Shown in pieces: positions 4,637 through 30,318 of a DNA stretch of 39,908 nt. The first letter of the stretch is position 1; each line of letters opens with the position of its first letter. Source of the stretch: Gemmatimonadales bacterium (GTDB lineage: Bacteria; Gemmatimonadota; Gemmatimonadetes; Gemmatimonadales; GWC2-71-9); NCBI GenBank assembly GCA_050733295.1, contig JBOHSQ010000028.1, forward strand, positions 1 to 39,908. Reading direction: 5' to 3'. Both the position numbers and the translations under genes were made by a program. Under the pieces are notes generated by a model. The model did not search any database and was not told the DNA's origin. It saw nothing but the letters and a program-made list of their open reading frames with translations.

Positions 4637-4640
4637 ACGG

Positions 4641-8522: not shown

Positions 8523-9071
8523 CTACCCGCCAAGGGCCCTCACTGCGGCGTGGCCGTAGAACAGCCGAATGTACTTGGCCTGGGTATCGGTCAGGCGCCG
8601 GACGGCCCAGGCGAGGTGCACGAAGTGCGGCTCGACTGGCTTCACCCGCGGATGCATCCCGCATTCCGCGGGCAGGTGGTTGCCCTTGCGCGTATTGCAG
8701 CTCGAGCAGGCGGTTACCACGTTGGACCACGCGTTTCCCCCGCCACGGCTCACCGGCACGAGGTGATCGCGCGTCAGGCATTCCCGCGTCCGCAGCTCGG
8801 CCTGATGCCGGCCGCAGTACTGGCAGCGGTACTCGTCCCGCGCGAAGAGGAAGGTGTTGGTGACCTGGCGGCGGAAGCGGCGGGGGACGTGCACGAAGCG
8901 GACGAGCCTGATGATGGCCGGTCTGGGTAGTGCCAGCCGCGCACTTCGGACCGTCTGGTCCCGCTCCGCCTCGACGATCTCCGCCTTCCCCTCGATGACG
9001 AGCCGCAGGGCGCGGCGCACCGGCACGAGGGTAAGCGGTTCAAACGAAGCGTTGAGTGCGAGGCAGCGCAC
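8523..9071 (-). CDS. HNH endonuclease (widespread LNASxEPL-type family)
   Basis: N-terminus MRCLALNASFEPLTLVPVRRAL. CQYCG ... LTRDHLVPVSRGG ... WSNVVTACSSCNTRKGN is a Cys4 / H-N-H core. Confidence 0.88.
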   Translation of the reverse strand: MRCLALNASFEPLTLVPVRRALRLVIEGKAEIVEAERDQTVRSARLALPRPAIIRLVRFVHVPRRFRRQVTNTFLFARDEYRCQYCGRHQAELRTRECLTRDHLVPVSRGGGNAWSNVVTACSSCNTRKGNHLPAECGMHPRVKPVEPHFVHLAWAVRRLTDTQAKYIRLFYGHAAVRALGG

Positions 9072-9152
9072 GCGGAGCCCCCGAATGGCCGTGACCGAAC
9101 TTGAGGAAGGCTAAGCCGGGAATGGACTTGCGGCAAGCGGGCGGAGGGGACG

Positions 9153-13929: not shown

Positions 13930-15465
13930 TCACCGCCTTCTCCTCGTTGATCGCGGCGGCTTCGCGCCGAGCAATCCGAACAACCCCCGCACAACCTCCC
14001 GGCCGATGGTGCGACCGAATGCGCCCGCGAGCGCGCCCGCGGTGGCGGCGGCGATGGTCTTCCCTGCCCCCCCGCGCCTCGGTTCCTCCCGCTCCGGAGC
14101 GGGCACGGGCGGCGCCTCTGCCCGTTCCATCCTTCGCGACAGCATCTCGTAGGCACTCTCCCGGTCCATCGCCTGTCCGTACTCCTTCGCCAGGTCCGAT
14201 TCGGCGAGCTCCCGGGCCATCTCTTCGGCCGTGAGCGGCGCCATCCGACTCGCGGGCGGACCCAGACGAGTCGCGACGACCGGAGTAGGTACGCCGCGTG
14301 GATCAAGCACCGTCACGATGGCCTCTCCGATCCCGAGCGTCGTGAGCGTCTCGCCGAGGTCGTAGAAGGTCGTCTTCGGGAAGGTTCGCACCGTGGCGCG
14401 TATCGCCGCGTCGTCGTCCGGAGTGTGGGCCCGGAGTGCGTGCTGCACTCGATTCCCCAGCTGGCCGAGCACGCTGGCGGGCACGTCCTTCGGGGTCTGG
14501 GTAACGAAGAAAACGCCAACGCCTTTCGACCGGACCAGGCGGACCACCTGCTCGACCTGCTCCAGGAACGGCTTCGGCGCATCGTTGAAGAGGAGGTGCG
14601 CCTCGTCGAAGTAGAAGACCAGCTTCGGTTGCTCCAGGTCGCCCACCTCGGGCAGCGCCTGGTAAAGCTCCGCGAGCAGCCACATCAGGAAGGTGGAGTA
14701 CAGGCGGGGCCGGTCCTGCACGTCGGCCAGTTCGAGGCAGGTGACCACGCCCTTTCCTTCCGCCGTCACGTGGAGCAGGTCGCGCACGTCGAACTCGGGC
14801 TCGCCGAAGAACCGCTCCGCCCCCTGGGCCTCGAGTTCCACCAGCTTGCGGAGGAGCACGCCGAGCGTGGGCCGTGATACTCCACCGACGCGCTCGATGT
14901 CGGCCTTCCCCTCGTCCGAGGTCAGGTGCTGCAGGACGGCGCGCAGGTCCTTGAAGTCGAGCAGGGGCAGGCCCGCATCGTCGCAGTACCTGAAGACCAG
15001 CGTGAGCACGCTGGTCTGGGTGTCGTTGAGGTCGAGGACCTTGGCGAGGAGCAGCGGCCCGAAGGAACTCACCGTGGCCCGGAGCTGGGCACCAAGTGTT
15101 CCCGACAGGCTGACGAACTCGACGGGTGAGCCGGCAGGCGTCCAGGTCCATCCGATGGTGCCCGCACGCTCGGTGAGCTTGGGGCTGCCGACGCCGGGGC
15201 GTGCGATGCCGCCCAGGTCGCCCTTCACGTCCGCGGCGAAGACCGGGATCCCCGCGGCGGAACACTGCTCGGCGAGCAGCTGCAGGGTGCGCGTCTTGCC
15301 AGTCCCCGTAGCGCCCGCCACGAGGCCGTGCCGGTTGAGCATGGCCAGCGGCACGCGCACCTGTGGGGCGGGATGAGGCTGTCCCTCGTGCAGGGCGGCG
15401 CCCAGTGTCAGCGACCGCGCATCGAATTCGTAACCGGCCCTGAGGTGCTCGGCGAAAGAGGTCAT
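13930..15465 (-). CDS. DUF853 / HerA-like helicase-domain ATPase
   Basis: Start taken at MTSFAEHLRAGYEF (ATG 15465), not the upstream Arg/Pro-rich extension. Walker A GATGTGKT, Walker B-like VFYFDEAHLLF. The overall pattern matches YjgR-type proteins. Confidence 0.85.
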   Translation of the reverse strand: MTSFAEHLRAGYEFDARSLTLGAALHEGQPHPAPQVRVPLAMLNRHGLVAGATGTGKTRTLQLLAEQCSAAGIPVFAADVKGDLGGIARPGVGSPKLTERAGTIGWTWTPAGSPVEFVSLSGTLGAQLRATVSSFGPLLLAKVLDLNDTQTSVLTLVFRYCDDAGLPLLDFKDLRAVLQHLTSDEGKADIERVGGVSRPTLGVLLRKLVELEAQGAERFFGEPEFDVRDLLHVTAEGKGVVTCLELADVQDRPRLYSTFLMWLLAELYQALPEVGDLEQPKLVFYFDEAHLLFNDAPKPFLEQVEQVVRLVRSKGVGVFFVTQTPKDVPASVLGQLGNRVQHALRAHTPDDDAAIRATVRTFPKTTFYDLGETLTTLGIGEAIVTVLDPRGVPTPVVATRLGPPASRMAPLTAEEMARELAESDLAKEYGQAMDRESAYEMLSRRMERAEAPPVPAPEREEPRRGGAGKTIAAATAGALAGAFGRTIGREVVRGLFGLLGAKPPRSTRRRR

Positions 15466-15692
15466 CGGGATGATTCCGCGAGGCGTGCCGGTTGCCCGGC
15501 TGCCGCTTCCTGGTAAAGTCGGCCGAGCCGGTCGTTCAGCCGGTCGATGTCGAATTCCTGCTCCACCCTTACCCTCGCGGCGGCGGTGACTGGCGCCCAC
15601 CGGATGGGAGACTCCAGCAAGGCGAAGACGCCGTGGACCAGGCCGGCAACGTCCCGCTCCCGGGCATGGAAGCCGCTCTCGCCGTCGCGCAT
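15462..15692 (-). pseudogene. relic of the C-terminal ~75 aa of a GT1/GT4 glycosyltransferase (76-codon ORF)
   Basis: The translation MRDGESGFHARERDVAGLVHGVFALLESP...ARVRVEQEFDIDRLNDRLGRLYQEA parallels the C-terminus of the intact GT4 at 18842-20029 (VREGETGFLVEPTDVEAATAAIAALLDDP...). No catalytic N-terminal part is present. The stop overlaps the ATPase's ATG (ATGA). Confidence 0.5.
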
Positions 15693-15704
15693 CCGATGCG
15701 CATG

Positions 15705-16877
15705 TCAGAGCGCGCGGTCTAGCAGCCTGGCGACGCGCTCGAGTTCCTCCACCGTGTTGTACAGGTGCGGCGAGAGCCGGATGGCACCCTCCCGGAGGCT
15801 CGTGACGACGCCGGCATCGTTCAGCGCCTGCCAGGCGCGCTCGGCATCCGGCGGACGGATGCAGAGGATACCCGATCCGCTTCCGCCCAGGGGAGAGGTC
15901 ACCGGAACGCCGCGCCGCCTCGCCCATTCAACCACCGGCACGCGAAGTGAACGAAGGTGGGCCGCGATGGCCTCGGCAGGGATCTCTGCGAAGAGTGAGA
16001 GCGACGCCACCATCCCGCAGAAATCCTGGAACGGCAGGGTGACCATCTCGAACCGGCGGGCGTCGTGCCGGAGGTCCGGATTGTAGGCGCACAGCCGGCT
16101 CAGGTCGTCGGTGCCCTGGAACGCCATCCAGCCGGCCCAGGGCGGTTCGATCCGGTCGAGCAGGCTCCGCCGCACGTAGGTGAACCCCGAGCCCCAGGGG
16201 CCGAGCAGCCACTTCTGCGCACCGCACGAAAGCATGTCCACCGGCGTCGCGGCGACGTCCACCGGCAGCTGTCCGCAGGCCTGAATCGCGTCGACCACGA
16301 GCAGGATGCCGCGGGCGCGCGTTTCGCGGGACAGGCGTGCGAGATCGAGCGTGTAGCCGGTGCTGAACTGGGTCAGCGAAACTGCCAGGCACCTGACCCT
16401 GGGGTCGTCGAGGCGCGCGAGCAATGCCCCCTCGTCCGGCCACCCCTCCGGCGTGAGCGGCAGCAGCTCGAATCGGAACGCGCCGTGTACGGCCCGGTGC
16501 AGGAACGGGTACACCAGCGCCGGAAATTCCTTGTCGCTGGCCAGCACCACGTCCTCCGGGCCGAGCGGCAGGGCCAGGGCCGCGAGGTTGATGCCGTAGC
16601 TGGTGTTGGGGGCGAGCGCGATTTCCGCCGGGTCGGCGTTGATGAGCCTGGCGGCTGCGGCGCGGGCGGCCTCGAAGATGGGGAAGAAATCCCCTTCACC
16701 GAGCCTGTGAGGGGCACTTCGCCGCTCGTGGTACTCGGCCAGCGCCCTGCGGGTCCGCTCCGGGTGCGGGCCGATGCTCGCGTGGTTGAGGTAGGTCGTC
16801 TCCTCCGCCCAGGGGAATTCCTCCCGGCGGATCGATTCGACGTCGAGGCTCGAAGGCGCAGCGGGTTCAGCCGTCAC
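15705..16877 (-). CDS. class-V aminotransferase-fold PLP-dependent enzyme (cysteine desulfurase / epimerase-like)
   Basis: YLNHASIGP, LVVDAIQACG and SCGAQKWLLGPWGSGF (PLP lysine context). Start placed at in-frame GTG 16877, because the longer ORF would overlap the upstream permease by about 100 nt. Confidence 0.85.
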   Translation of the reverse strand: MTAEPAAPSSLDVESIRREEFPWAEETTYLNHASIGPHPERTRRALAEYHERRSAPHRLGEGDFFPIFEAARAAAARLINADPAEIALAPNTSYGINLAALALPLGPEDVVLASDKEFPALVYPFLHRAVHGAFRFELLPLTPEGWPDEGALLARLDDPRVRCLAVSLTQFSTGYTLDLARLSRETRARGILLVVDAIQACGQLPVDVAATPVDMLSCGAQKWLLGPWGSGFTYVRRSLLDRIEPPWAGWMAFQGTDDLSRLCAYNPDLRHDARRFEMVTLPFQDFCGMVASLSLFAEIPAEAIAAHLRSLRVPVVEWARRRGVPVTSPLGGSGSGILCIRPPDAERAWQALNDAGVVTSLREGAIRLSPHLYNTVEELERVARLLDRAL

Positions 16878-17726: not shown

Positions 17727-18845
17727 TTGCGGAAACGTGGGGGAACGCGCCTTACGTTATTCCCATCGCGTCCGGCAGAGCAACCCGTGGATTCCAGCCA
17801 GCGCTTCTCGCTCGTTCTCGGTGGAGGCGGCCTCAAGGGGCTCGCCCACATCGGCGTGCTGCGCGCCCTGGAGGAGCGGGGGCGTTCTCCCGACGCCCTG
17901 GTGGGCACGAGCATCGGCGCGCTGGTGGCCGCGGGCTACGCGGCCGGCGTGCCGGTGGACGAGCTCTGGGAGCGCGCGCTTCTGGTGGAGCGCCGGCATG
18001 TCTTCCAGATCGCCCACGTCGACATGGCCTTCCGGCGGATGCTCTCCCCCGCCGTCTACCGCCGGGAGCCGCTCGAGTCGCTGGTCACGAGCCTGGTGGG
18101 GTCGCGCACCTTCAAGGAACTCGGCCGCCAGCTGGTGGTGAATACCGCGGACCTCAACTCGGGCATGCAGGTGCTCTGGGGCATGCCCGGCCTCGACGAC
18201 GTGGGCGTGGCCGACGCCGTGATCGCCTCGTGTGCGCTGCCGGGCATCTTCCCGCCGCGGGAGATCCGGGGTCGCTGGTACATGGACGGCGCCGTCATCG
18301 AGAGCCTGCCGATCCGCGCCGCGGGGGTCCTGACCGACGGCCCCGTCGTGGCGGTGGACCTCGGGGGCGGCGGGGCGCTGCGGGAGGGAATCGAACGGCA
18401 GGGGTTCGCGGCCACCTACGCCCGCGGATTCGAGATCGTCATGGGAACCCGGCTCGAGCTGCAGGCACTGACCTATCGCCGCCCGCCGGTCCTGCTGGTG
18501 GCCCCCCGCCTGGCCCACCTCTCGATGTTCGCCTTCGACGATACCGCCAACCTGCTGCAGGAGGGTTATCGCGCGACCCTGGAGGCGCTGGATCACTTCG
18601 ACGAACTGTTCGAACCGGGCGCCATCGGGCTCTACCCGCGCCGCCGCGTGATCCTGAGCGTGGACCGCGAGCACTGCATCGGGTGCCGCGCCTGCGTCGC
18701 CCGTGCGCCCGACATCTTCCAGATGGATTCGAGCGGCAAGGCGGTCGTGATCTCGCCCGAGCAGGTGTGGTCGCCGTTCGACGGCAGCTACGTCCGCAAC
18801 TGCCCGACCTGGGCCATCAAGGCGAAGCCGGCCCCGCCCCGCTAG
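17727..18845 (+). CDS. patatin-like phospholipase fused to a C-terminal single-cluster ferredoxin domain
   Basis: Patatin motifs LVLGGGGLKG (oxyanion), GTSIGA (GxSxG) and MDGAV (DGA/G Asp). The C-terminal VDREHCIGCRACVARAPDIF...VRNCPTWAI is CxxCxxC...CP. The start is uncertain: TTG 17727 or in-frame GTG 17787. Confidence 0.85.
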   Translation: MRKRGGTRLTLFPSRPAEQPVDSSQRFSLVLGGGGLKGLAHIGVLRALEERGRSPDALVGTSIGALVAAGYAAGVPVDELWERALLVERRHVFQIAHVDMAFRRMLSPAVYRREPLESLVTSLVGSRTFKELGRQLVVNTADLNSGMQVLWGMPGLDDVGVADAVIASCALPGIFPPREIRGRWYMDGAVIESLPIRAAGVLTDGPVVAVDLGGGGALREGIERQGFAATYARGFEIVMGTRLELQALTYRRPPVLLVAPRLAHLSMFAFDDTANLLQEGYRATLEALDHFDELFEPGAIGLYPRRRVILSVDREHCIGCRACVARAPDIFQMDSSGKAVVISPEQVWSPFDGSYVRNCPTWAIKAKPAPPR

Positions 18846-21072: not shown

Positions 21073-21933
21073 TCAGACGATCTCGTAATTCCTGAACTCG
21101 AACACCCGCGCACCCGTCGTCCGCTCGATGAGCCCGGAAATCCAGTAGCGCAGGAACGCGGGCTTGAAGCGCCGCGGCCCGACCGGTGCGGTCTTCCCCC
21201 GCCATCGCGCGACGTACCCGCTCGCGGCCTGCGGGTGCGTGCCGGTGAATCGCTCGAGACCCGGGATCCACGGGACCAGGGGCCGCTCTTCGCCGACGGG
21301 ACGCCATGGGTACATCGACTTCCCGACCTCGCGCTTCCGCTCCAACGCGATCGTCGGACGCGACCAGCCGTAGTGGAACATCTCGGCATCGGTGAGACGA
21401 GCGCGGATCTTCCTGTGCTCCGGCCCGACCCGGAAGCCCTGGGCGCCCTGATAGGGACGGATATCGAGTGCGGGGTCGAGGCGCACTGCACGGACTTCGC
21501 GCCGGTACCAGCGACGGTGGGTCGCCAGCGTGTCGAAGTCGCCATAAAAGTGACGGTAGTGGACCAGCAGCCCCTCGACCGCCGGATCGCCGTCGCAGGC
21601 CTGGATGGCAGTGGCCAGGATGTGCGCGCCCCGTTCGTGCAGCACCTCGTCGGCCTGGATATAGATCCCCCACGGATGCGCGCACGCGCGCATCGCCTTG
21701 AGGGTCTCCTCGCCAAGCATGTAGTTGCGCTTGGAGAGGTCCCAGGTGCTCTCGATGATTCGCACCTTCGGGTTCGCCATGCTCCGCACCACCTCGAGCG
21801 TGTCGTCCTCCGACTGCCCCACGTTCACGACCACTTCGTCGCATGCGTCGAGCAGTGAGGCGATGCTGGCCTCGAGCGGGAAGCAGAGCTTCACCGCGTT
21901 CCGCGCTATGGTGAATCCGGAGATCTTCGTCAC
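21073..21933 (-). CDS. glycosyltransferase, family 2-like
   Basis: Start at GTG 21933 (VTKISGFTIARNAVKLCFPLEASIASLLDACDEVVVNVGQSEDDT), with GAGGA upstream. The Arg/Pro-rich upstream extension of the 398-aa ORF is not coding-like. Confidence 0.68.
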   Translation of the reverse strand: MTKISGFTIARNAVKLCFPLEASIASLLDACDEVVVNVGQSEDDTLEVVRSMANPKVRIIESTWDLSKRNYMLGEETLKAMRACAHPWGIYIQADEVLHERGAHILATAIQACDGDPAVEGLLVHYRHFYGDFDTLATHRRWYRREVRAVRLDPALDIRPYQGAQGFRVGPEHRKIRARLTDAEMFHYGWSRPTIALERKREVGKSMYPWRPVGEERPLVPWIPGLERFTGTHPQAASGYVARWRGKTAPVGPRRFKPAFLRYWISGLIERTTGARVFEFRNYEIV

Positions 21934-22042
21934 GGTGGGGTCCTCTGGCCGGGGCTGAATCTGCGCCGGCCCCGGGACGCGCCGCAAGCCGACCGTGGCG
22001 CGGGTACATTGCGGGCGTCGCCGCCAGCCGGGAGCCGGGCCG

Positions 22043-22972
22043 ATGACTTCATCCACTCCGACCCCGCCAGCAGCGTCCGCTCTCACTGACCGTCGCGTCC
22101 TCGTCACCGGCGCCACCGGCTTCCTGGGAGCGCACCTGGTCCGGGCACTGGCGGGGGGAGGGGCTCGCGTGTTTGCGGTCGCCCGGCGGCGGTCGCCCGA
22201 TGTGCCCGACGCCATCCAGGCCGACTTCGCCGACCCCGCCGCGGTCCGCGAAGTGCTCGCCACCTCCACACCCGACCTGGTCTACCATCTCGCGGCGCAC
22301 GCGTGGGCGCCCCCGCGGCTCGACCTGGTGCAGCCGACCTTCCGGAGCGGCCCGGTCACCCTGGTGAACCTGCTCGTGACGCTGGCGGAGTCGGGGCGGC
22401 GCATCCGCGTCGTGGTACCGGGATCGCAGAACCAGCCGTTGCCGGGCTCCGGCGACACCCCGGCGTCACCATACGCGGCAGCGAAGGCGGCCGAAGGACT
22501 CTACTGCGACCTCTTCGAGCGGGTCTTCGGCCTGCCGTTCGTGCAGCTCCGGCTCTTTCCCGCCTACGGTCCGGGCCAGCATCCCGACAAGCTCATTCCG
22601 TCCGTCGCGCTCGCCCTGCTCCGTGGCGATTCTCCGGTCATCGGCAACCCGGACCTTGCCCTCGACTGGCTGTATGTGGACGACGCCGTGGAGGCGCTGG
22701 TCGCGGCGGGGACGTCCGACGCCGAAGCAGCAGGGCCGATCGATGTGGGGACGGGGGCGGCGACCGAACTCCGCGTGGTGGCCGGGATGCTCGCCGATCT
22801 GGTGGGCGGCCCGGGACGCCCGAGGTTCGCGGCGACTGCCGAGCGGCCCCTCGAGCGCAGCCAGGCCGCCGATACCGACGCCGCGGAGCGGCTGCTGGGC
22901 TGGCGGGCGAGGGTGTCGATCCGCGAGGGACTCGCCCGCACGGTGGCGGGCCTGAGGGAGCCGAAGGCCTAG
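22043..22972 (+). CDS. NAD-dependent epimerase/dehydratase (SDR family)
   Basis: VLVTGATGFLGAHLV Rossmann motif and YAAAKAAEG (YxxxK). ATG 22043 chosen over the upstream alternative start. Confidence 0.88.
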   Translation: MTSSTPTPPAASALTDRRVLVTGATGFLGAHLVRALAGGGARVFAVARRRSPDVPDAIQADFADPAAVREVLATSTPDLVYHLAAHAWAPPRLDLVQPTFRSGPVTLVNLLVTLAESGRRIRVVVPGSQNQPLPGSGDTPASPYAAAKAAEGLYCDLFERVFGLPFVQLRLFPAYGPGQHPDKLIPSVALALLRGDSPVIGNPDLALDWLYVDDAVEALVAAGTSDAEAAGPIDVGTGAATELRVVAGMLADLVGGPGRPRFAATAERPLERSQAADTDAAERLLGWRARVSIREGLARTVAGLREPKA

Positions 22973-22997
22973 GCAACAGGTCCGTCCGACGGGCTGC

Positions 22998-23500
22998 TCA
23001 CGAGGCGAACCCGACCATACGGACCAGGTGCCGCAGCCGGTGCATGTAGGTGTGCTCCTGCATCGCCCGGCGGCGCGGGGCCGCCGCCCAGCGCCTCCGC
23101 GGCGGGAAGGTCGTGCAGCAGCTCCTCGACATACGCGCGGAGCTTCTGGGCCGAGCGGAAGGTGCGGACCTCCTCGCCTGGGGTGAAGCACGCGTGCAGG
23201 TCGCCCCGGTCGTCCACCACCTGGGCGGCGCCAATGGCGGCCAGCTCGAGCAGCCGCCGGTTGCAGCCGACATCGCGGCCGGCCAGGACCCCCTCCGCCG
23301 TGTGATGGATGTTCACCGCAACCGACGCGCCACCGTAGGCCCGCAGGAAGTCGTCCATGACCATCCGTTCCCCGCGGCAGCAGTCGCGCAGCGAGGTGCG
23401 GCGCCACCCCGGTCCCCACGGGGCCAGCCCGAACTCGACCAGCTGCGCCAGCAGGGCCTCACGCCGGGCGGTCGCCCGCCCCGCGAAGACCACGTTCGCG
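22998..23500 (-). pseudogene. truncated, frameshifted copy of the 3' half of the CgeB-like gene at 24825-25817
   Basis: The translation VVFAGRATARREALLAQLVEFGLAPWGPGWRRTSLRD... is near-identical to residues of the intact paralogue. Between 23064 and 23100 the copy has 37 nt where the intact gene has 36 (24891-24926). The conserved C-terminus RRRAMQEHTYMHRLRHLVRMVGFAS therefore falls in another frame. Confidence 0.78.
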
Positions 23501-23502
23501 CG

Positions 23503-23584
23503 GCAGCGAGGTGATGCTGGCCTGGAGCGGGAAGCAGAGCTTGACCGCGTTCCGCGCGATGGTGAACCCCGAGATTCGCGTCAC
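23503..23584 (-). pseudogene. duplicated 5' fragment (first ~27 codons) of the GT2-like gene at 21073-21933
   Basis: Manual alignment of 23503-23584 to 21852-21933 gives 72 of 82 identical positions. It starts with a GTG overlapping the upstream stop (GTGA) and runs into TGA after about 41 codons, out of frame with the adjoining CgeB-like remnant. Confidence 0.72.
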
Positions 23585-24828
23585 GCCACCGCCTCCCGGA
23601 AGCCATGCTTCCCGGCGGGCGCGGGCAGCGCCCGGAGTGCGAGCCAGAGCATCGCCCCGAGGAGGGCGAGCAGGAGCCAGGTATAGAAACTGTAGCCGCC
23701 CAGCAGGCGATGGGCCTCACGGCCGAGGACGTCGCGCCCGGCGAAGCCGCTCGCCACGCACAGTACGCCGAGCCCGCGCACCAGCCACCGCTGGGCCGGG
23801 GGCATGCCCGACACCGGCGTGGCGAGCAGCACGAAGAAGACGAAGAGCATGCTCACGAGGTGCGCCTTCCAGGTGAGCGGGGAGACCAGGTGCATCGCCG
23901 CGAATGCGGCCGCGAGCTCGTGCACGTTGACCGGGCTCCCGGCCAGGGCCAGGCGCAGCAGCACCAGCACGAATGCCGCGAGGACCGCCAGCGAGGCGAC
24001 CTGCGTCGCACGCGTGGCCGCGGCGCGCCCGGCCGGGACCAGCACGTACGATCGGCCGCCCGGAGCCTCCGGGGCAACCAACGCGCGATCGATGGCGGCG
24101 GCCAGGCCCTGGTTGGTGACCTCCCGCGCGACGCGACCCTGGGCGAAATCGGCGAGGAATGTCGCGTAGTACTCCCGGTAGTCGGCCAGCCCGCGGGCGG
24201 GGCCCCGCTGGAGCAGGGGGCTCACGAGGAGGAGGGGCACGAGTGCGGCGGCGAATGCAAGGGTGCGGCGCCGTCCCCGGACCAGGAGCCAGAGGAGGAA
24301 GATGCCGGCCGTGAGCTTGACCAGCGTCGGGATGACCAGGAGCGCCGCCGCCCCCGCGCTCCGGCCCCGCAGCTCCGCCAGGAGTCCGCCTAGGCAGAGC
24401 GCGAGGAGCGCCAGGTTGACCTGGTTGAGCTTGAGGTTGTTGAGGAGTAGGTGGAACGAGCCGGCCAGTGCGAGCGCGAGCGGCCACCGCCAGGACCCGA
24501 GTCCGGGAAGCGCCAGCTCGGCGAGGCGGACCGACTGGATGGCGACGACGCCGATGAGGCCCACGCTGAGGGCATGGAACGCCACGGCAGACAGCGGCAG
24601 CGGGAACAGGCCGAGGACCTGGAAGACCATGGCCGCGAAAGGGGGATAGATGAAGCTCCTCGCGCCGGGCGTAGGCTGGTAGAGCGGACGCCCGTCGAGG
24701 AAGTCCCGGCCCGCCTGCCAGAAGACGTGGAAGTCGGTCCCGACCCGCTGGTCCAGCTGCCACAGCGACACGCCGACCGCCATCGCCACCGCCGCGGCCC
24801 ACGCCAGCCGGCGGCCGGACTCGGTCAC
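23581..24828 (-). CDS. DUF2029 / glycosyltransferase family 87-like polytopic membrane protein
   Basis: TDFHVFWQAGRDFLDGRPLYQP...FIYPPFAAMVF near the N-terminus, followed by about 9-10 hydrophobic helices. The GTG start overlaps the upstream stop. Confidence 0.75.
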   Translation of the reverse strand: MTESGRRLAWAAAVAMAVGVSLWQLDQRVGTDFHVFWQAGRDFLDGRPLYQPTPGARSFIYPPFAAMVFQVLGLFPLPLSAVAFHALSVGLIGVVAIQSVRLAELALPGLGSWRWPLALALAGSFHLLLNNLKLNQVNLALLALCLGGLLAELRGRSAGAAALLVIPTLVKLTAGIFLLWLLVRGRRRTLAFAAALVPLLLVSPLLQRGPARGLADYREYYATFLADFAQGRVAREVTNQGLAAAIDRALVAPEAPGGRSYVLVPAGRAAATRATQVASLAVLAAFVLVLLRLALAGSPVNVHELAAAFAAMHLVSPLTWKAHLVSMLFVFFVLLATPVSGMPPAQRWLVRGLGVLCVASGFAGRDVLGREAHRLLGGYSFYTWLLLALLGAMLWLALRALPAPAGKHGFREAVA

Positions 24829-25817
24829 GAGCCGAACCCGATCGAGCGGACCAGCTGCCGGAGTCGGTGCATGTAGGTGTGCTCGCGCATGGCCCGACGG
24901 CGGGCCGCCTCGCCCATCGCCTCCGCGGCGGGGAGATCGTGCAACAGCCCTTCGACGTGCGCGCGGAGTTCCTGCGCCGAGCGGAAGACCCGAATCTCCT
25001 CCCCGGCGGTGAAGCAGCCGTGCAGGTCGGCGCGATCGTCGACCACCTGGGCGGAGCCGATGGCGGCCAGCTCGAAGAGCCGACGGTTGCAGCCGGTGTC
25101 GCGCCCTGCCAGCACTCCTTCAGCCGTGTGATGGATGTTCACCGCCACCGACGCCCCACCGTAGGCGCGCAGGAAGTCGTCCATCACCATGCGCTCGCCG
25201 CGGCAGTAGTCGCGCAGCGAGGTGCGCCGCCACCCCGGTCCCCAGAGCGCGAGCCCGAACTCCACCAACTGCGCCAGCAGGGCCTCACGGCGCGCGGTCG
25301 CGCGCCCCGCGAACACCACGTTCGCCCGGAACTCGCCTCCTGCGCGCCGGGGGCGGTGAACCGAAGGGTCGCAGGCCGGGGCCAGCCACTCCGGCACCTC
25401 CCGCAGCCGGTCACCGAGCACCCCGGCCACGTCGGATCCGCTCGCGAAGACACGGTCGTAAGCCTGCGCCTCTTCCCACAGCGAGTCGGCGGCCTCGAGT
25501 CCGTGGGGAAACCAGGCCACCCATCGCGCGCTGCTTCGTGAACGGAGGCCGGCCAGGAGGTCATGCCCGAGCGGGTCCTCCCCGGAGACGAGCACCAGGT
25601 CCGGATTGGTCGAGTCAAGCGCCCGCGCCACCCGGGTGCGCAGGTCCCGAGCCCCTGTGAGCCGGCCGAGCAGGCCGCCGTTGCGGGCAGAGTTGACATG
25701 GTGGACCGTCCAGCCGAGCCGCTCCAGCGCGCGGCGCCGCAAGGCGGCGTGCGCGTGCAGGCCGGCGTCGGCGGGCTCGAGCAGGAGTACGGAGCGGCCG
25801 CCTGCCGGGGCCGTCAC
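24825..25817 (-). CDS. CgeB-like glycosyltransferase (DUF3880 / Glyco_trans_1_2 type), intact paralogue
   Basis: CNRRLFELAAIGSAQVVDDRADLHGCFTAGEEIRVFRSAQELRAHVEGLLHDLPAAEAMGEAARRRAMREHTYMHRLRQL. There are 4-nt overlaps with both neighbouring genes. Confidence 0.78.
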   Translation of the reverse strand: MTAPAGGRSVLLLEPADAGLHAHAALRRRALERLGWTVHHVNSARNGGLLGRLTGARDLRTRVARALDSTNPDLVLVSGEDPLGHDLLAGLRSRSSARWVAWFPHGLEAADSLWEEAQAYDRVFASGSDVAGVLGDRLREVPEWLAPACDPSVHRPRRAGGEFRANVVFAGRATARREALLAQLVEFGLALWGPGWRRTSLRDYCRGERMVMDDFLRAYGGASVAVNIHHTAEGVLAGRDTGCNRRLFELAAIGSAQVVDDRADLHGCFTAGEEIRVFRSAQELRAHVEGLLHDLPAAEAMGEAARRRAMREHTYMHRLRQLVRSIGFGS

Positions 25818-27640
25818 GTCGCTGCCTCCTCGGCAAGGGGCTCCTGGAACTGGAGGTCGTACAGGCGCCGGTATGTGCCGCCCCGCGCGTAGAGCTGGTC
25901 GTGTGGGCCCTGTTCGGTGAGCCGGCCTTCCTCGAGCACGAGGATCTCGTCCGCGTTCCGCACCGTGGCGAGCCGGTGGGCGATGACCAGGACCGTGCGG
26001 TCCGCCATCAGCCGGTCGATCGCCTGCTGCACCAGCCGCTCCGACTCCGTGTCGAGCGCGCTGGTGGCCTCGTCGAGGATGAGGATGGGCGAGTCGCGGA
26101 GGAGTGCGCGCGCGATCGCGATGCGCTGCCGCTGCCCTCCGGAGAGCCGTGTTCCCCGTTCACCCAGCATCGTGTCGTATCCCTCGGGAAGCTGCCGGAT
26201 GAAGTCGTCGGCATTGGCGGCCTTCGCAGCCGCCTCCACCTCGGCCCGGGTGGCCTCGGGCGAGCCGTACGCGATGTTCACGTGTACCGTGTCGTTGAGC
26301 AGGACCGTCTCCTGGCCCACGATGCCCATCAGGTCACGGATGGACCCGCGCGACAGCCGGGTGAGCGGCACTCCGTCCATGGCAATGCGGCCCCCCGTCG
26401 GGTCGTAGAACCGGGGCAGCAGGTCCGCGAGCGTGGTCTTTCCCGCCCCGGACGGGCCGACCAGCGCCGCCACGCGACCCCTCGGGAGGGTGAAGCTCAC
26501 GTCCCTGAGGACTGGCTGCTCGCCGTCGTAGCTGAACCCGACCCCTTCGAAGGCGAGCTCGCGCTGGAATCGCGCCGTCCCCTCGCCGGGCGCCGGCGCC
26601 TCGCCGGCCGCGGTGTCGAGCAGGCTGAAGACCTGCTCGGCGCTGCCCAGCGCCAGCGCGAGCGCGGCGGGGAACTGGCTCAGCGCCTTGAGCGGGCGCA
26701 TCAGCCGAAGGGCGGCAACCAGGAACACGATCGTCGCCTCGGCCGTCAGCGGCGGGCCGCCAACCAGCCCCGGCTTCGTGGCGGCCCAGATCACCAGGAT
26801 CAGCATCAGCCCGCCAAACACCTCGCTCACGGGGCTGGTGAGCGAGGAGTAGCGCTGGGTGCGGATCACCCGCTTGCGGTAGGTGTCCGCCTGCGAATCG
26901 AAGGAGGCCGACTCCCGCTCCTCCTCGCCGTAGCCGCGGATCAGCTTGATCGCGCCCATGCGCTCGGCCAGGTAGGCGGTGATGGAGCCACGTTCCTTGG
27001 CGCGGGCCCGGGAGTGGCGACGGAGACGCTGGAGCAGCGCCTGGATTCCGATGACCAGGATCGGGGCCGCGGCGAGGAAGACCAGCGTGAGCCGCCACGA
27101 GGTGAGGCCGAGGACCACCAGCGTCACGGCGATGACGACGAGGTTCTCGAAGAAGGCCGTGAGGGATGCGGTGACCACGCCCTTGGCCTGGTCCACCTCG
27201 GTGATCACGGTGGACACGATCTGCCCGCCGCGGGTGCGCTGGAAGAAGCCCAGGGGAAGCACCAGCAGGTGCCGGAAGAGGTCCACCCGGATGTCGCGGA
27301 CCAGCCCCTCCTGGATGCGCACCCTGAGCTGGGTGGTCGCGTAGGCCATGGCGTTCTTGAGCAGCAGGCCCACCACCAGGATGACCACGATGCGGGCCAC
27401 CGCCTGGTCCGGCGATGCACCCGAGAGCAGCGGGCCGATCACCCGGTCCATCAGCTCCTCGAGCTGGGTGGAACCGGTGCGCAGCACGCCCGCCGTGCCG
27501 AAGAGGTGCTTGAGGAGCGGGACCAGCACGACCACCGTGAAGCCGTCCAGAACGGAGGCCAGCAGGGTGGTGACGACACTCAGGGCGAACAGGCCGCGAT
27601 AGGGCCGGAGGTACGGCAGCAGCCGCCGCAGCGTCTCCAC
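25814..27640 (-). CDS. ABC exporter, fused permease/ATPase, MsbA-like lipid/glycolipid flippase type
   Basis: Six-helix TMD, Walker A GPSGAGKTT, signature LSGGQRQRIAIARA, Walker B ILILDEATSALD. GTG start 3 nt after the upstream stop. Confidence 0.92.
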   Translation of the reverse strand: METLRRLLPYLRPYRGLFALSVVTTLLASVLDGFTVVVLVPLLKHLFGTAGVLRTGSTQLEELMDRVIGPLLSGASPDQAVARIVVILVVGLLLKNAMAYATTQLRVRIQEGLVRDIRVDLFRHLLVLPLGFFQRTRGGQIVSTVITEVDQAKGVVTASLTAFFENLVVIAVTLVVLGLTSWRLTLVFLAAAPILVIGIQALLQRLRRHSRARAKERGSITAYLAERMGAIKLIRGYGEEERESASFDSQADTYRKRVIRTQRYSSLTSPVSEVFGGLMLILVIWAATKPGLVGGPPLTAEATIVFLVAALRLMRPLKALSQFPAALALALGSAEQVFSLLDTAAGEAPAPGEGTARFQRELAFEGVGFSYDGEQPVLRDVSFTLPRGRVAALVGPSGAGKTTLADLLPRFYDPTGGRIAMDGVPLTRLSRGSIRDLMGIVGQETVLLNDTVHVNIAYGSPEATRAEVEAAAKAANADDFIRQLPEGYDTMLGERGTRLSGGQRQRIAIARALLRDSPILILDEATSALDTESERLVQQAIDRLMADRTVLVIAHRLATVRNADEILVLEEGRLTEQGPHDQLYARGGTYRRLYDLQFQEPLAEEAAT

Positions 27641-27643
27641 TCC

Positions 27644-29209
27644 TCAACTCCTCCGTGGCGTGAGGAGTGCGATCGGCAGGATGACCTCCTCGGGGGAAAC
27701 GCCCCCGTGCAGGAATGCCCCGCGATACCGGGCCTGGTATTCCCGGAGCTTGGTGGGATAGACGAAGAAGCGGTCACCCGTGGCGAGCGCGAGGCGGGTC
27801 GTGGGAGTCCTGGCCGGGAGGCCGTACCCGCGCAGGTCGTCGACCACGATGGCGGCCTCGGGATCCTCGGGCCGCAGGTCCTCGCCGAACTTGTAGCGGA
27901 GATGGGAGGTCGCGTCGCGCCGGGCGTAGAGCGTCGCCGGCGTGTGGCAGTGGATCGAGCCGTGATCGGTGGTGAGGAGCACCGGGACGCGGCGCCGTTC
28001 GGCCTCACGCAGCGCCTGGCGCAACGGCGAGCGCTCGTACCATGTGCGGGTCAGGTTGCGAAGGGCCGAGGCGTCGCGCGCCACTTCGTACAGCGTGGAG
28101 TTCTCCGTGCGGCCGTGGGTGAGCTGGTCCACGAAGTTGAAGACAAGCGCGGTCACTCCGTTCCGGGCCAGATGCCCCGGCAGCCGGCGCAGCAGCTGTT
28201 CCCCGTCCGCCGAGGTGAAGACCTTCTCGTAGTGGACGGGAATGTCGCGCCCCGTGAGCTCCCGCAACTGCTCCGTCAGCAGCTCCGCCTCGAAGGCGTT
28301 GAGCCCGCCCTCCTCCTGGCCCCGCCACACTTCCGGCCGCCGCTCCGCCAGTTCCACCGGGAACCAGCCGCTGAAGATCGCATTCCGCGCGTAGGGCGTG
28401 GCGGTCGGAAGAATCGAGAGGTAGTGAGCGGTCTCGAGGTCGAACTGGCCGCCCACCAGCGGGCGAAGCATGGCCCACTGGTCGAGGCGGAGGCAGTCGA
28501 CCACGATGAGCAGCGCGCGGCCCTCGGCCTCGAGCACGGGACGGAGGAACTCGGCCCCGACGTCCACCGACAGTGGCGGGCGGTCGCCCCCGCTTGACCC
28601 CAGCCAGCGCGGGTAGTTCGCGGCGAGGAACCGGGCGAAATCCTGACGCAGTGAGACCTGCAGGGTCGCGAGCGCATCCTGGAGGCCCGGCTCGTCTGCG
28701 TGGCCGAGCCGCACCTCCCATTCGGCGAGCTCGCTCACGAGGTCGATCCATTCCCGCCAGCCGAGATCCCCGCCGCGCCGCGCCTCGAGATCGCGGAAGC
28801 GGGTCGCGAAGTCGCGCGAGAGCCGCTGCTGCCGGATCCGGTCTCCCTCCAGCAGCCTGGTGACGACTGACAGGATCTGCCGAGGGTTGACCGGCTTGAT
28901 GAGGTAGTCGGAGACCTCGACCCCGATGGCGTCGCGGAGTGTCGCGACCTCCTCGCTCTTCGTCACCATCACCACGGGGAGGGATTGGTCCGACTCGCGG
29001 ATCGCCCGGAAGATCTCGAGCCCCCGCCGCCCGGGCATGTGCTCGTCCAGCAGCACGATGCCGTAGGGCTGGCGCTGCAGCAGTGCCAGGGCGTCATCGC
29101 CGTTGGTGGCGCGCTCGACCGTGAAGCCCTGTTCCTCCAGGAAGAGGATCTGGGAGGTGAGGCTCTCGATCTCGTCATCGACCCAGAGAATGCTCTTCGG
29201 GCGGGGCAT
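27644..29209 (-). CDS. PorX-type response regulator: CheY-like receiver fused to a PglZ (alkaline-phosphatase superfamily) domain
   Basis: Receiver ILWVDDEIESL...IVLLDEHMPGRRG...VVMVTKSEE...DYLIKP. PglZ-type motifs LLIVVDCLRLDQW, LPTATPYARNAIFSG and LLTTDHGS. Confidence 0.88.
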   Translation of the reverse strand: MPRPKSILWVDDEIESLTSQILFLEEQGFTVERATNGDDALALLQRQPYGIVLLDEHMPGRRGLEIFRAIRESDQSLPVVMVTKSEEVATLRDAIGVEVSDYLIKPVNPRQILSVVTRLLEGDRIRQQRLSRDFATRFRDLEARRGGDLGWREWIDLVSELAEWEVRLGHADEPGLQDALATLQVSLRQDFARFLAANYPRWLGSSGGDRPPLSVDVGAEFLRPVLEAEGRALLIVVDCLRLDQWAMLRPLVGGQFDLETAHYLSILPTATPYARNAIFSGWFPVELAERRPEVWRGQEEGGLNAFEAELLTEQLRELTGRDIPVHYEKVFTSADGEQLLRRLPGHLARNGVTALVFNFVDQLTHGRTENSTLYEVARDASALRNLTRTWYERSPLRQALREAERRRVPVLLTTDHGSIHCHTPATLYARRDATSHLRYKFGEDLRPEDPEAAIVVDDLRGYGLPARTPTTRLALATGDRFFVYPTKLREYQARYRGAFLHGGVSPEEVILPIALLTPRRS

Positions 29210-29271
29210 GACTGAAAGGTAAGCGGGGAGCGGGGAGCGGAAAGCAGGGGCGGCGCCCAGCTTACCGCCTG

Positions 29272-30318
29272 TTGCCCGGCGGGATACCTTGTTCCCCAGT
29301 GCCTGCGGCTCCGCTTCGCATCCTGCTCGTCCGGTTCAGCGCCATCGGCGACGTGCTGCTCACGACGCCGCTCATTCGCGCGCTCAGGAGCCGGTACCCG
29401 TGGGCCTATCTCGCGGCGGCCACCAAGCGTCCACTGGCGCCGCTGCTGACCCACAACCCGCACCTCGACGCGGTCCTGGCCCTCGAGCCTTCCGAGGACC
29501 TCCGGGACCTCGCCGACCGGATCCGGAAAACGCGCTTCACCCACCTGCTCGACCTCCACGGCAACCTGCGAACGGCGGCCCTGCGCCTCATGGTTCCAGG
29601 ACAGTGGAGAGGCTACCCCCACTTCCGCGCGGCGAGGCGTCGGCTGGTGCGCCGCAAGGAGGATCGATACCCCGCCGGCACGCCACCCGTCGCCGAGCGC
29701 TACTTCCAGGCCGCGGCCGGCCTGGATATCGTGCCGGACGGCGGGCCTCCCGAGTTCGGGCTCGACGCGCGGGAGATCGCGTGGGCGCGGACCTGGCTCG
29801 GCATCCGCCACCTCGGGATGCGCAGGAGGCTGGTCGTGGTGGCGCCGGGAGCGACCCACGCCACCAAGCGCTGGCCGATCGAGGCGTGGAAGGCGCTGGT
29901 GGCAGACCTGACCGCTCGCGACCGCGACGTCGTCGTGCTGGGCGGACCGGAGGACCGAGACCTGGCCCAGGCGATCTCGGCGGTTGGTGGAGAGCGCGCG
30001 GCCTCGGCGGCGGGCGAGGCCAGTCTCCAGGGAACCGGCGGACTGCTGTCCGCGAGCACCGTGGCGGCCGCGGGCGATACGGGGGTGATGCACATGGCGA
30101 CCGGGGTGGGGATCCCGGTGGTCGCGCTCTTCGGGCCCACAGTCAGGCACTTCGGCTTCACCCCCTACCGTGCCCGGGCGATCATCCTCGAGCGGGAGCT
30201 CGACTGCAGGCCCTGCAGCTACCACGGAGGTCCCGACTGCCCGTTGGGCCACCACCGCTGCCTGCGCGACATCCTGCCCACGGAGGTCGCGGCCGCGCTC
30301 GAGTCGCTGGGGGGCTGA
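29272..30318 (+). CDS. glycosyltransferase family 9 (ADP-heptose:LPS heptosyltransferase-like)
   Basis: ILLVRFSAIGDVLLTTPLIRALR, PGATHATKRWP, GDTGVMHMATGVGIPVVALFGPT. The start is TTG 29272 or in-frame GTG 29299. Confidence 0.85.
   Translation: MPGGIPCSPVPAAPLRILLVRFSAIGDVLLTTPLIRALRSRYPWAYLAAATKRPLAPLLTHNPHLDAVLALEPSEDLRDLADRIRKTRFTHLLDLHGNLRTAALRLMVPGQWRGYPHFRAARRRLVRRKEDRYPAGTPPVAERYFQAAAGLDIVPDGGPPEFGLDAREIAWARTWLGIRHLGMRRRLVVVAPGATHATKRWPIEAWKALVADLTARDRDVVVLGGPEDRDLAQAISAVGGERAASAAGEASLQGTGGLLSASTVAAAGDTGVMHMATGVGIPVVALFGPTVRHFGFTPYRARAIILERELDCRPCSYHGGPDCPLGHHRCLRDILPTEVAAALESLGG

Follow-up and report, generated by a model that had tools for sequence, protein, structure and literature searches.

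Gene organization of the locus

What is a regulator of protein secretion doing at the head of a set of lipid-export and glycan-assembly genes? To our knowledge, PorX is the sole dedicated regulator of type IX secretion (T9SS), and we are aware of hardly any description of this system in the Gemmatimonadota. The question is raised by the window analyzed here, the whole stretch of 39,908 nucleotides (70% GC) from a soil/cave Gemmatimonadales bacterium, which carries the following features:

27644..29209, minus strand: porX orthologue, 521 aa, ATG start (Pfam Response_reg and PglZ; NCBIfam NF052313)
25814..27640, minus strand: MsbA-like ABC half-transporter, 608 aa, GTG start (Pfam ABC_membrane and ABC_tran)
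24825..25817, minus strand: CgeB-like glycosyltransferase (Glyco_trans_1_2), 330 aa (Pfam PF13524, 95.3 bits)
23581..24828, minus strand: GT87/DUF2029 membrane glycosyltransferase, 415 aa (Pfam PF09594, 93.8 bits against a gathering score of 25)
29272..30318, plus strand: GT9 (heptosyltransferase-family) LPS-core glycosyltransferase (Pfam Glyco_transf_9, 107.6 bits against a threshold of 22)
29210..29271, no strand: divergent intergenic stretch between porX and the GT9 gene, 62 nt, presumed promoter region (read from the sequence)
27648..27654, minus strand: Shine-Dalgarno-like GGAGGAG within the last porX codons (read from the sequence)

A sequence-only reading of this DNA had described a compact operon divergent from the GT9 gene, and the layout of the open reading frames is exactly as claimed. 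By the ORF coordinates, porX and the exporter gene are 3 nt apart, and the two following junctions are overlaps of 4 nt each, exporter with CgeB-like gene and CgeB-like with GT87 gene. The GTG of the exporter begins 3 nt past the porX stop, and the GGAGGAG lies 7 nt upstream of this GTG (27640), an arrangement consistent with translational coupling of the two genes. The porX, exporter, GT87, and GT9 frames are backed as real genes by their codon-position GC pattern. The Glyco_trans_1_2 frame failed this filter and was retained as a gene because it has a Pfam match and an orthologue at the same position in related loci. No sigma-70 consensus was detected in the 62-nt intergenic region and no terminator-like site across 7.6 kb, both scans being uninformative for this phylum. 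A search for RNA runs containing this sequence gave none. The intergenic region would presumably serve as the promoter, and porX is probably co-transcribed with the msbA-like and glycosyltransferase genes.

The receiver-PglZ protein

Judged by its sequence, the 521-aa protein is a true PorX orthologue. The call of a PorX-type receiver-PglZ architecture was borne out by the HMM search that had been proposed for it, with the N-terminal domain matching Pfam Response_reg (85.9 bits) and the C-terminal domain Pfam PglZ (62.4 bits). The equivalog model NF052313 (T9SS_RR_PorX) scored 509.2 bits against a cutoff of 300, with residues 6–519 aligned to model positions 2–513 of 513, that is, over the full length; the Longimicrobiales (555 bits) and Gemmatimonas (528 bits) orthologues passed it as well. 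Full-length matches were also found to the solved PorX structures of Flavobacterium johnsoniae (PDB 8ted, E about 3e-108) and Porphyromonas gingivalis (PDB 7pv7, E about 8e-103). The protein shares its two-domain architecture with both of these (P. gingivalis PGN_1019, 7pv7; F. johnsoniae Fjoh_2906, 8ted and 8p6f), is about 36% identical to the latter, and at 521 aa is close to their length of about 520 and inside the PorX range of 500–530 aa (PMC9757075). In the alignment to solved PorX no membrane segment was evident, as for a soluble protein of the cytoplasmic type.

The residues on which PorX function depends are also retained. In the PorX alignment (A1), the receiver residues D11, D12, T83, K105, and the phospho-acceptor D55, which corresponds to D58 of P. 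gingivalis, are invariant, as are D238, T271, R275, N358, D361, H365, D415, H416, and H501 of the PglZ domain. The metal ligands and Thr nucleophile of P. gingivalis PorX are D239, T272, D361, H365, D415, H416, and H500 (PMC9757075), and all are matched in the window protein (D238, T271, D361, H365, D415, H416, and H501), while R275 and N358 are the counterparts of the nucleotide-phosphate contacts in the pGpG complex. At the known functional sites the window PorX is therefore no different from the Bacteroidota proteins, the phospho-acceptor, metal-binding, nucleophile, and phosphate-contacting residues being identical to those of P. gingivalis and F. johnsoniae. From this conservation of the active site, its PglZ domain is predicted to be a phosphodiesterase of the alkaline-phosphatase type. 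PorX proteins are further characterized by such activity on cyclic and linear oligonucleotides and by binding to PorL/GldL. The position of Tyr79, the UbK1 target in P. gingivalis PorX, is occupied by Ser76 in the window protein and by Ala in F. johnsoniae; a further difference from both is the host phylum, the Gemmatimonadota, in which T9SS is barely documented.

T9SS and kinase genes

The absence of a T9SS or kinase gene nearby had been considered unusual. The observation itself holds: no T9SS gene was recognized among the scanned ORFs of the window, and its only histidine kinase (3434–4636) lies 22 kb away, paired with its own sigma-54 regulator. The weight given to it does not, as such isolation is normal for PorX. 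P. gingivalis porX and porY are unlinked orphans (PMC10951265), and the window porX, like those of P. gingivalis and F. johnsoniae, stands away from the kinase and the T9SS core genes. Among 39 PorX loci of other FCB phyla, sprA was adjacent in two and a kinase in nine. Outside the Bacteroidota, several phyla have a histidine kinase gene immediately next to porX, and these kinases are candidates for the cognate sensor.

Evidence for the secretion system in the phylum comes from SprA, the T9SS translocon. Two SprA proteins scored 467 and 584 bits with TIGR04189 (cutoff 200); they are assigned to a Longimicrobiales MAG and, by way of a 90% cluster, a Gemmatimonadales MAG, and lie on contigs of 70–71% GC. 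Of the T9SS core components, the search of the phylum covered SprA, which was found only in MAGs. Because the PorX equivalog model is passed, the catalytic residues are kept, and SprA occurs in Gemmatimonadales and Longimicrobiales MAGs, a role in T9SS is the default for the window PorX and would presumably apply in this organism. On the same grounds, the different PorX output suggested by the sequence-only reading is unsupported.

The MsbA-like exporter

The best NCBIfam model for the exporter is TIGR02203 (MsbA_lipidA), with 508.8 bits, under the equivalog cutoff of 602; because this model scores best yet falls below its cutoff, we call the protein MsbA-like. Models of HepA-type glycolipid exporters come close to this score. 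The architecture is that of a half-transporter, with one six-helix ABC_membrane domain and one ABC ATPase (Pfam), and among bacterial PDB structures the protein matches MsbA best (E=2e-107). For the orthologous exporters of Longimicrobiales, Gemmatimonas, and Gemmatimonadaceae the best model is also MsbA (481–527 bits). In five loci (L031, L032, L036, L038, and L039) a gene of the LpxL family directly follows the msbA-like gene, an order seen in Longimicrobiales and some other, deeper lineages of the phylum. Best model and linkage to LPS genes together suggest an MsbA-type flippase for lipid A-core or glycolipid.

The E. coli-type msbA-lpxK operon offers a useful comparison. Both have a half-size ABC exporter, for which MsbA is the best model and the best bacterial structural match, and in the deeper Gemmatimonadota msbA is directly followed by a gene for a lipid A enzyme of the LpxL family. 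In place of lpxK, however, the partner in the Gemmatimonadota is an acyltransferase or glycosyltransferases, the operon is headed by a response-regulator gene, and the window exporter stays under the cutoff of the curated MsbA model.

Conservation of the porX neighborhood

The window was compared with 83 related loci, 44 from Gemmatimonadota and 39 from other FCB phyla. In the window and in every one of the 39 informative Gemmatimonadota loci, porX is immediately followed by an msbA-like gene of the same orientation, at PorX identities of 52–79% and MsbA identities of 30–68% (the 30% is a contig-end fragment, the others being 40–68%). The estimated gap between the two genes is at most 62 nt in 35 of these 39. 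None of the 38 informative loci of the other FCB phyla has an msbA-like gene beside porX, and the sole same-strand ABC match among them is weak (27% identity) and 6.8 kb from porX. In those phyla, the gene directly after porX is tsaE/ubK in 25–30 of the 39 loci. This neighborhood, typical of PorX without defining it, is not that of the window, and tsaE is absent within 10 kb of porX in all 45 Gemmatimonadota loci (window included). In P. gingivalis, the downstream ubK1 (tsaE/yjeE family) is a functional partner of porX, and the adjacency guided its study (PMC13241743). The Gemmatimonadota porX likewise has a conserved same-strand gene immediately downstream, with the difference that this gene encodes an ABC lipid flippase instead of a P-loop kinase.

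Beyond msbA, the genes vary among the Gemmatimonadota relatives (LpxL, GT4, or CgeB-like glycosyltransferase). Across the phylum, synteny of the operon holds for porX-msbA alone. An orthologue of the CgeB-like gene in this place was confined to the closest clade (L001–L003 and L005–L008, 44–50% identity), and the GT87 gene had no tblastn match in any of the 83 related loci, so that it appears as a variable, window-specific end of the operon among the loci compared. For neither glycosyltransferase was a PDB relative found by sequence. The GT9 gene, which scored 115.3 bits with the heptosyltransferase II model TIGR02195 (cutoff 134.6), is likewise confined, in its position next to porX, to the closest clade (PorX identity at least about 67%). 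As far as gene order tells, the porX-msbA pair is the sole conserved part of the operon, phylum-wide in the Gemmatimonadota, and this gene order is the new point.

A possible link between secretion control and LPS supply

With porX placed directly before msbA, there is a hint that the cell coordinates its control of secretion with outer-membrane lipid export. A possible link between T9SS and the biogenesis of surface glycolipid (LPS) had been rightly anticipated, and other gene arrangements agree: lpxD-lpxC/fabZ-lpxA is divergent from porX in 11–13 Bacteroidota loci, and lptF/G is divergent from sprA, Gemmatimonadota included. T9SS cargo is anchored to A-LPS, and a lipid A 1-phosphatase depends on T9SS (PMC8545088, PMC12704123). 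The reading we prefer, with a probability of roughly 0.55, is that PorX is an ordinary one, expressed along with the proteins of LPS export. By homology, an unlinked kinase would phosphorylate it at Asp55, after which it would signal by way of its PglZ phosphodiesterase domain and of protein contacts with the secretion motor, as has been shown for the P. gingivalis and F. johnsoniae proteins. In the Gemmatimonadota, porX would have come to head a transcription unit, with the gene of an MsbA-type lipid A-core flippase second and variable LPS genes after it (LpxL-type acyltransferase, GT4, or CgeB-like/GT87 glycosyltransferases). PorX would be produced together with the machinery of LPS export and assembly, and secretion could plausibly be controlled in step with the supply of LPS, given that T9SS cargo is LPS-anchored and T9SS function affects lipid A. 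A functional coupling of PorX and MsbA may accordingly exist, and the conserved adjacency is by itself no proof of it. We regard as unlikely a broader version, in which PorX coordinates LPS biogenesis with T9SS throughout the FCB group, hard-wired here as porX-msbA(-lpxL/GT), and PorX, or the oligonucleotide signal that it degrades, directly tunes either lipid A-core export or the LPS operon.

The adjacency might instead be an inherited accident of an ancestral rearrangement, with PorX doing its usual T9SS job and no functional link to MsbA. We find this a somewhat doubtful account, though a serious one: PorX and MsbA identities drop in parallel across the phylum, as plain vertical co-inheritance predicts, and both the changing genes after msbA and the Bacteroidota-like functional sites of PorX fit it. 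Yet the pair has outlasted divergence to 52% (PorX) and about 40% (MsbA) while nearly all other neighbors changed, and its very short or overlapping junctions were kept. Moreover, tsaE/ubK, the other conserved neighbor of PorX, has in P. gingivalis proved to be its functional partner (PMC13241743), and T9SS genes adjoin LPS genes in further arrangements too.

More far-reaching is the idea, the first alternative of the sequence-only reading, of a repurposed PorX that acts on an envelope glycolipid independently of T9SS, by controlling it or by modifying it enzymatically; examples would be hydrolysis of a phosphodiester or pyrophosphate bond in a lipid-linked sugar, or regulation of the LPS operon. 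Its position at the head of an LPS export/assembly operon in every Gemmatimonadota member examined, the absence of the customary tsaE/ubK partner from the surrounding 10 kb, and a 2026 study proposing PorX roles beyond T9SS output (PMC13241743) speak for such a change. We hold it to be improbable, since the protein scores well above the NF052313 cutoff, keeps the pGpG phosphate contacts R275 and N358 with all metal ligands, and is of the soluble, cytoplasmic type, and SprA is found in the same taxonomic order. That the PglZ domain marks a component of BREX/Pgl-type phage defense has a negligible chance. BREX PglZ phosphatases do share the PglZ fold and the metal-ligand set with PorX (PMC9757075), and two of their models match weakly (NF033449, 78.8 bits; NF033446, 47.9 bits), but these scores are far under the cutoffs of 250 and 200. 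BREX PglZ proteins are also longer (at least 600 aa, against 521 aa in the PorX range; PMC9757075), have no receiver domain, which the window protein has, and stand among other neighbors, no BREX partner genes being present among the annotated neighbors in the window and 44 related loci. With scores, length, receiver, and neighbors all against it, a BREX identity is effectively refuted.

Were the adjacency neutral, what is left would be a PorX orthologue, annotated as a matter of routine. A further outcome is the record of PorX and SprA for the Gemmatimonadota. For the ordinary, co-expressed PorX that we favor, the phylum-wide porX-msbA operon points to LPS supply as a possible partner of PorX signaling. 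The placement of porX beside lpxD-lpxC/fabZ-lpxA in Bacteroidota and of sprA beside lptF/G points the same way, and the idea agrees with the hints from P. gingivalis, where cargo is anchored to A-LPS and lipid A dephosphorylation depends on T9SS.

Identity of the regulator

By every sequence criterion, the 521-aa receiver-PglZ protein of the window is PorX, the response regulator of type IX secretion (T9SS); it adds a member to a family already described. The protein matched NF052313 (T9SS response regulator signal transducer PorX) end to end at 509 bits, against a cutoff of 300. The PorX-type, receiver-PglZ assignment made in the sequence-only reading is supported. Full-length alignments were also obtained with the solved PorX of F. 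johnsoniae (8ted/8p6f, E=3e-108; about 36% identity) and with that of P. gingivalis (7pv7, E=8e-103). When the protein was aligned with its Flavobacterium counterpart and two relatives, the receiver residues D11, D12, T83, and K105 and the phospho-acceptor D55 were invariant. The same was observed for the metal ligands and Thr nucleophile of the PglZ domain (D238, T271, D361, H365, D415, H416, and H501, the set listed for P. gingivalis PorX) and for the phosphate-contacting R275 and N358.

Organization of the porX region

The window is a chromosomal fragment with a GC content of about 70%. The four minus-strand ORFs between 23581 and 29209 are tightly packed, and the operon layout claimed from the sequence alone held as written in its ORF coordinates, gaps, and Pfam domains.

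Genes of the porX region (all Pfam matches above the gathering score)
27644-29209, minus strand: porX, receiver and PglZ domains (Response_reg and PglZ), 521 aa
25814-27640, minus strand: msbA-like ABC exporter (ABC_membrane and ABC_tran), 608 aa; GTG start 3 nt past the porX stop
24825-25817, minus strand: glycosyltransferase (Glyco_trans_1_2), 330 aa; 4-nt overlap with the exporter gene
23581-24828, minus strand: GT87 glycosyltransferase, 415 aa; 4-nt overlap with the Glyco_trans_1_2 gene
29272-30318, plus strand: GT9 glycosyltransferase (Glyco_transf_9), 348 aa; 62 nt from porX, on the opposite strand

Codon-position GC backed the frames of PorX, the exporter, GT87, and GT9. It did not back that of Glyco_trans_1_2, which was accepted because of its Pfam match and because relatives have an orthologue in the same place. 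The final codons of porX contain the sequence GGAGGAG, 7 nt ahead of the msbA-like start. Promoter and terminator scans, which are uninformative for Gemmatimonadota, found no sigma-70 consensus between porX and the GT9 gene and no terminator-like site in the 7.6 kb of the operon region. porX and the msbA-like gene are presumably co-transcribed. For the exporter of the window, MsbA structures were the best bacterial PDB matches. A PDB sequence search with the Glyco_trans_1_2 and GT87 glycosyltransferases returned no match for either.

The rest of the window is ordinary chromosome, with further LPS-type glycosyltransferases and a sugar epimerase at 18.8-23 kb, a class A PBP, a HerA-like NTPase (13930-15927, minus strand; PF05872, 623 bits), yebC-ruvCAB, tgt, and def. 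A small HNH endonuclease gene (8523-9110, minus strand) is separate from that of the NTPase. The gene at 17727-18845 (plus strand) encodes a fusion of a patatin-like phospholipase with a 4Fe-4S ferredoxin-type domain; it borders the glycosyltransferase cluster and is conserved there in the related Gemmatimonadales loci L002, L005, L008, and L010. Some mechanically called ORFs overlap, namely 21073-22269 (minus) with 21995-22972 (plus), and 22466-23419 (minus). The true start of the epimerase/dehydratase is probably later than 21995, since its Pfam match starts only at residue 35, and the 317-aa ORF at 22466-23419 shows a codon-GC pattern typical of antisense artefacts.

The closest homologues (74-97% identity) were from Gemmatimonadales MAGs and soil metagenomes. 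The window DNA itself was almost complete in one cave-metagenome run (95% of words) and weak in soil metagenomes; in the sequencing-run search, it was matched in no RNA run.

Conservation of the porX-msbA pair

A pattern scan, with one genome taken per species, gave 80 PorX loci. Of these, 41 were from Gemmatimonadota (52-79% identity) and 39 from members of other FCB phyla (36-42%), namely Balneolaceae, Latescibacteria, KSB1, Zixibacteria, Ignavibacteriales, Eisenbacteria, Calditrichaeota, Chlorobiaceae, and Bacteroidota. Synteny was evaluated by tblastn of the window proteins against all loci. Immediately after porX, and in the same orientation, an MsbA-like gene was present in the window and in all 39 Gemmatimonadota loci with enough sequence, spanning Gemmatimonadales, Gemmatimonadaceae, Gemmatimonas (including the MAG loci L018 and L024), and Longimicrobiales. 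The estimated gaps were at most 62 nt in 35 loci, 134-348 nt in three, and 2.3 kb in one. No msbA-like gene adjoined porX in the 38 informative loci of other phyla, where the sole same-strand ABC match was weak (27% identity) and 6.8 kb away. In every lineage tested, the best family model for the exporter was MsbA_lipidA, at 481-527 bits and always below its strict cutoff of 602, followed by HepA-type glycolipid exporter models.

The gene beyond msbA depends on the lineage: it is a GT4 in Gemmatimonadaceae, a CgeB-like glycosyltransferase in the clade of the window, and an LpxL-family lipid A acyltransferase in lineages that include Longimicrobiales. By tblastn, the GT87 gene had no counterpart in any related locus, and the divergent GT9 gene was limited to the closest clade of the window.

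In the other phyla, porX was followed in 25-30 of the 39 loci by tsaE/yjeE (UbK kinase family), with both genes on one strand, and tsaB and rimI often came next (for example, L061:11434-11865 and L056:2109-2795). The porX-ubK1 neighborhood of P. gingivalis thus extends more widely, and it was seen in Bacteroidota, Ignavibacteriales, Balneolaceae, Latescibacteria, KSB1, Calditrichaeota, and Chlorobiaceae. In the Gemmatimonadota loci, tsaE was absent within 10 kb of porX. Judged by synteny, the porX-msbA organization is a conserved variant specific to this phylum, where it takes the place of the usual porX-ubK pair; no link between porX and msbA by gene context was found in the literature searched.

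Type IX secretion genes in Gemmatimonadota

The literature on T9SS in this phylum is thin: a 2016 survey found no T9SS outside Bacteroidetes, and one sentence of a review states that it "may be present" (PMC11285876). The translocon SprA was searched for with proteins adjoining porX in two loci (TIGR04189) as queries. Metagenomes were scanned with a GC-rich DNA pattern of the invariant SprA motif YIDDFEG, and then with a profile made from the divergent high-GC matches. The high-GC matches of the pattern were mostly from Rhodothermales or Eisenbacteria, 18 matches were unrelated proteins, and Gemmatimonadota SprA emerged only among the weaker profile matches. These included a Longimicrobiales MAG protein of 2019 aa that bears the name SprA, along with a set of comparable proteins about 2020-2070 aa long. 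Two of them passed the SprA equivalog model (467 and 584 bits; cutoff 200). Their contigs have 70-71% GC and a common order, lptG-lptF divergent from sprA-M28 peptidase-comEA-pilBTC, and the 90% cluster of one includes HTT68087.1, annotated as SprA of a Gemmatimonadales bacterium. Given these scores and the MAG assignments, the translocon exists in the order of the window and in one further order of Gemmatimonadota, with the proviso that MAG-based labels are not infallible. One partial member of a Gemmatimonadota-type SprA 90% cluster (that of P0338), for example, comes from a MAG and bears the label Geminicoccaceae (Alphaproteobacteria), probably a binning error.

The lack of T9SS or kinase genes near porX had been regarded as an anomaly, which the comparison did not bear out. 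In P. gingivalis, porX and porY, the gene for its kinase, are unlinked (PMC10951265). Among the 39 loci of other phyla, sprA was directly upstream of porX in just two (a Chitinophagaceae MAG and a Chlorobiaceae MAG; L049:2276-9793 and L075:3395-9874) and a histidine kinase in nine, all outside Bacteroidota proper. The latter (L047, L058, L059, L061-L065, and L080; for example, L065:2159-3502) are from Ignavibacteriales, Zixibacteria, Latescibacteria, Eisenbacteria, and unclassified MAGs, and show the order serS-HK-porX-tsaE-tsaB. Their sensor histidine kinases of about 420 aa are candidates for non-orphaned, PorY-type cognate kinases.

The apparent kinases in the Gemmatimonadota loci were hybrid-kinase receiver domains matching PorX itself. 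The only histidine kinase/sigma-54 regulator pair of the window, 22 kb from porX, consists of a HAMP kinase and an NtrC-type regulator separated by 4 nt, on the plus strand. The kinase (3434-4636) grouped by BLAST with the PorX-adjacent kinases, but that cluster includes generic and hybrid kinases; for this reason, and because of its NtrC-type partner, the grouping was rejected as evidence for a PorY candidate. An overlapping 582-aa ORF with only sub-threshold Omp85 and bactofilin matches follows the pair (3434-7756 for all three genes), and a comparable trio lies downstream of sprA in the sprA-bearing locus L166.

Association with lipopolysaccharide genes

In 11-13 Bacteroidota loci (Flavobacteriia/Chitinophagia), porX is divergent from genes for an HD-domain protein, lpxD, bifunctional lpxC/fabZ, and lpxA (for example, L076:143-3819 and L078:3683-4612), and thus abuts a lipid A biosynthesis operon. 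Genes for lptF/lptG-like LPS-export permeases are divergent from sprA in 8 of the 29 informative sprA loci (for example, L165:3306-10945 and L166:7281-16159), Gemmatimonadota contigs included. Lipid A/LPS genes are thus repeated neighbors of T9SS genes, and the arrangements are several and independent. The link to surface glycans suggested by the sequence-only reading is supported.

Most likely, the regulator is an ordinary PorX whose expression is tied, in this phylum, to that of a lipid A-core flippase and LPS assembly genes. An unlinked kinase would phosphorylate it at D55, and phosphorylated PorX would act on the secretion machinery, which presumably operates in this organism, through its phosphodiesterase domain and protein contacts; in Gemmatimonadota, porX would be expressed together with the flippase and assembly genes. 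Such coordination is plausible, since T9SS cargo is anchored to A-LPS (PMC8545088) and lipid A 1-dephosphorylation needs a working T9SS (PMC12704123), and the coupling may be a real, functional one.

That the adjacency of porX and msbA is neutral, inherited synteny seems to us rather unlikely. A 2026 study in P. gingivalis, using the porX-ubK1 neighborhood, showed that UbK1 phosphorylates PorX on Tyr79 (PMC13241743), so a conserved PorX neighbor has proved functionally informative once already; the equivalent residue is Ser76 in the PorX of the window and Ala in F. johnsoniae. A PorX repurposed to control or modify LPS independently of T9SS is improbable. A BREX-type role is effectively excluded; the BREX PglZ models scored far under their cutoffs. 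From comparative genomics, the porX-msbA operon would offer a concrete and testable lead on what PorX signaling is coordinated with.
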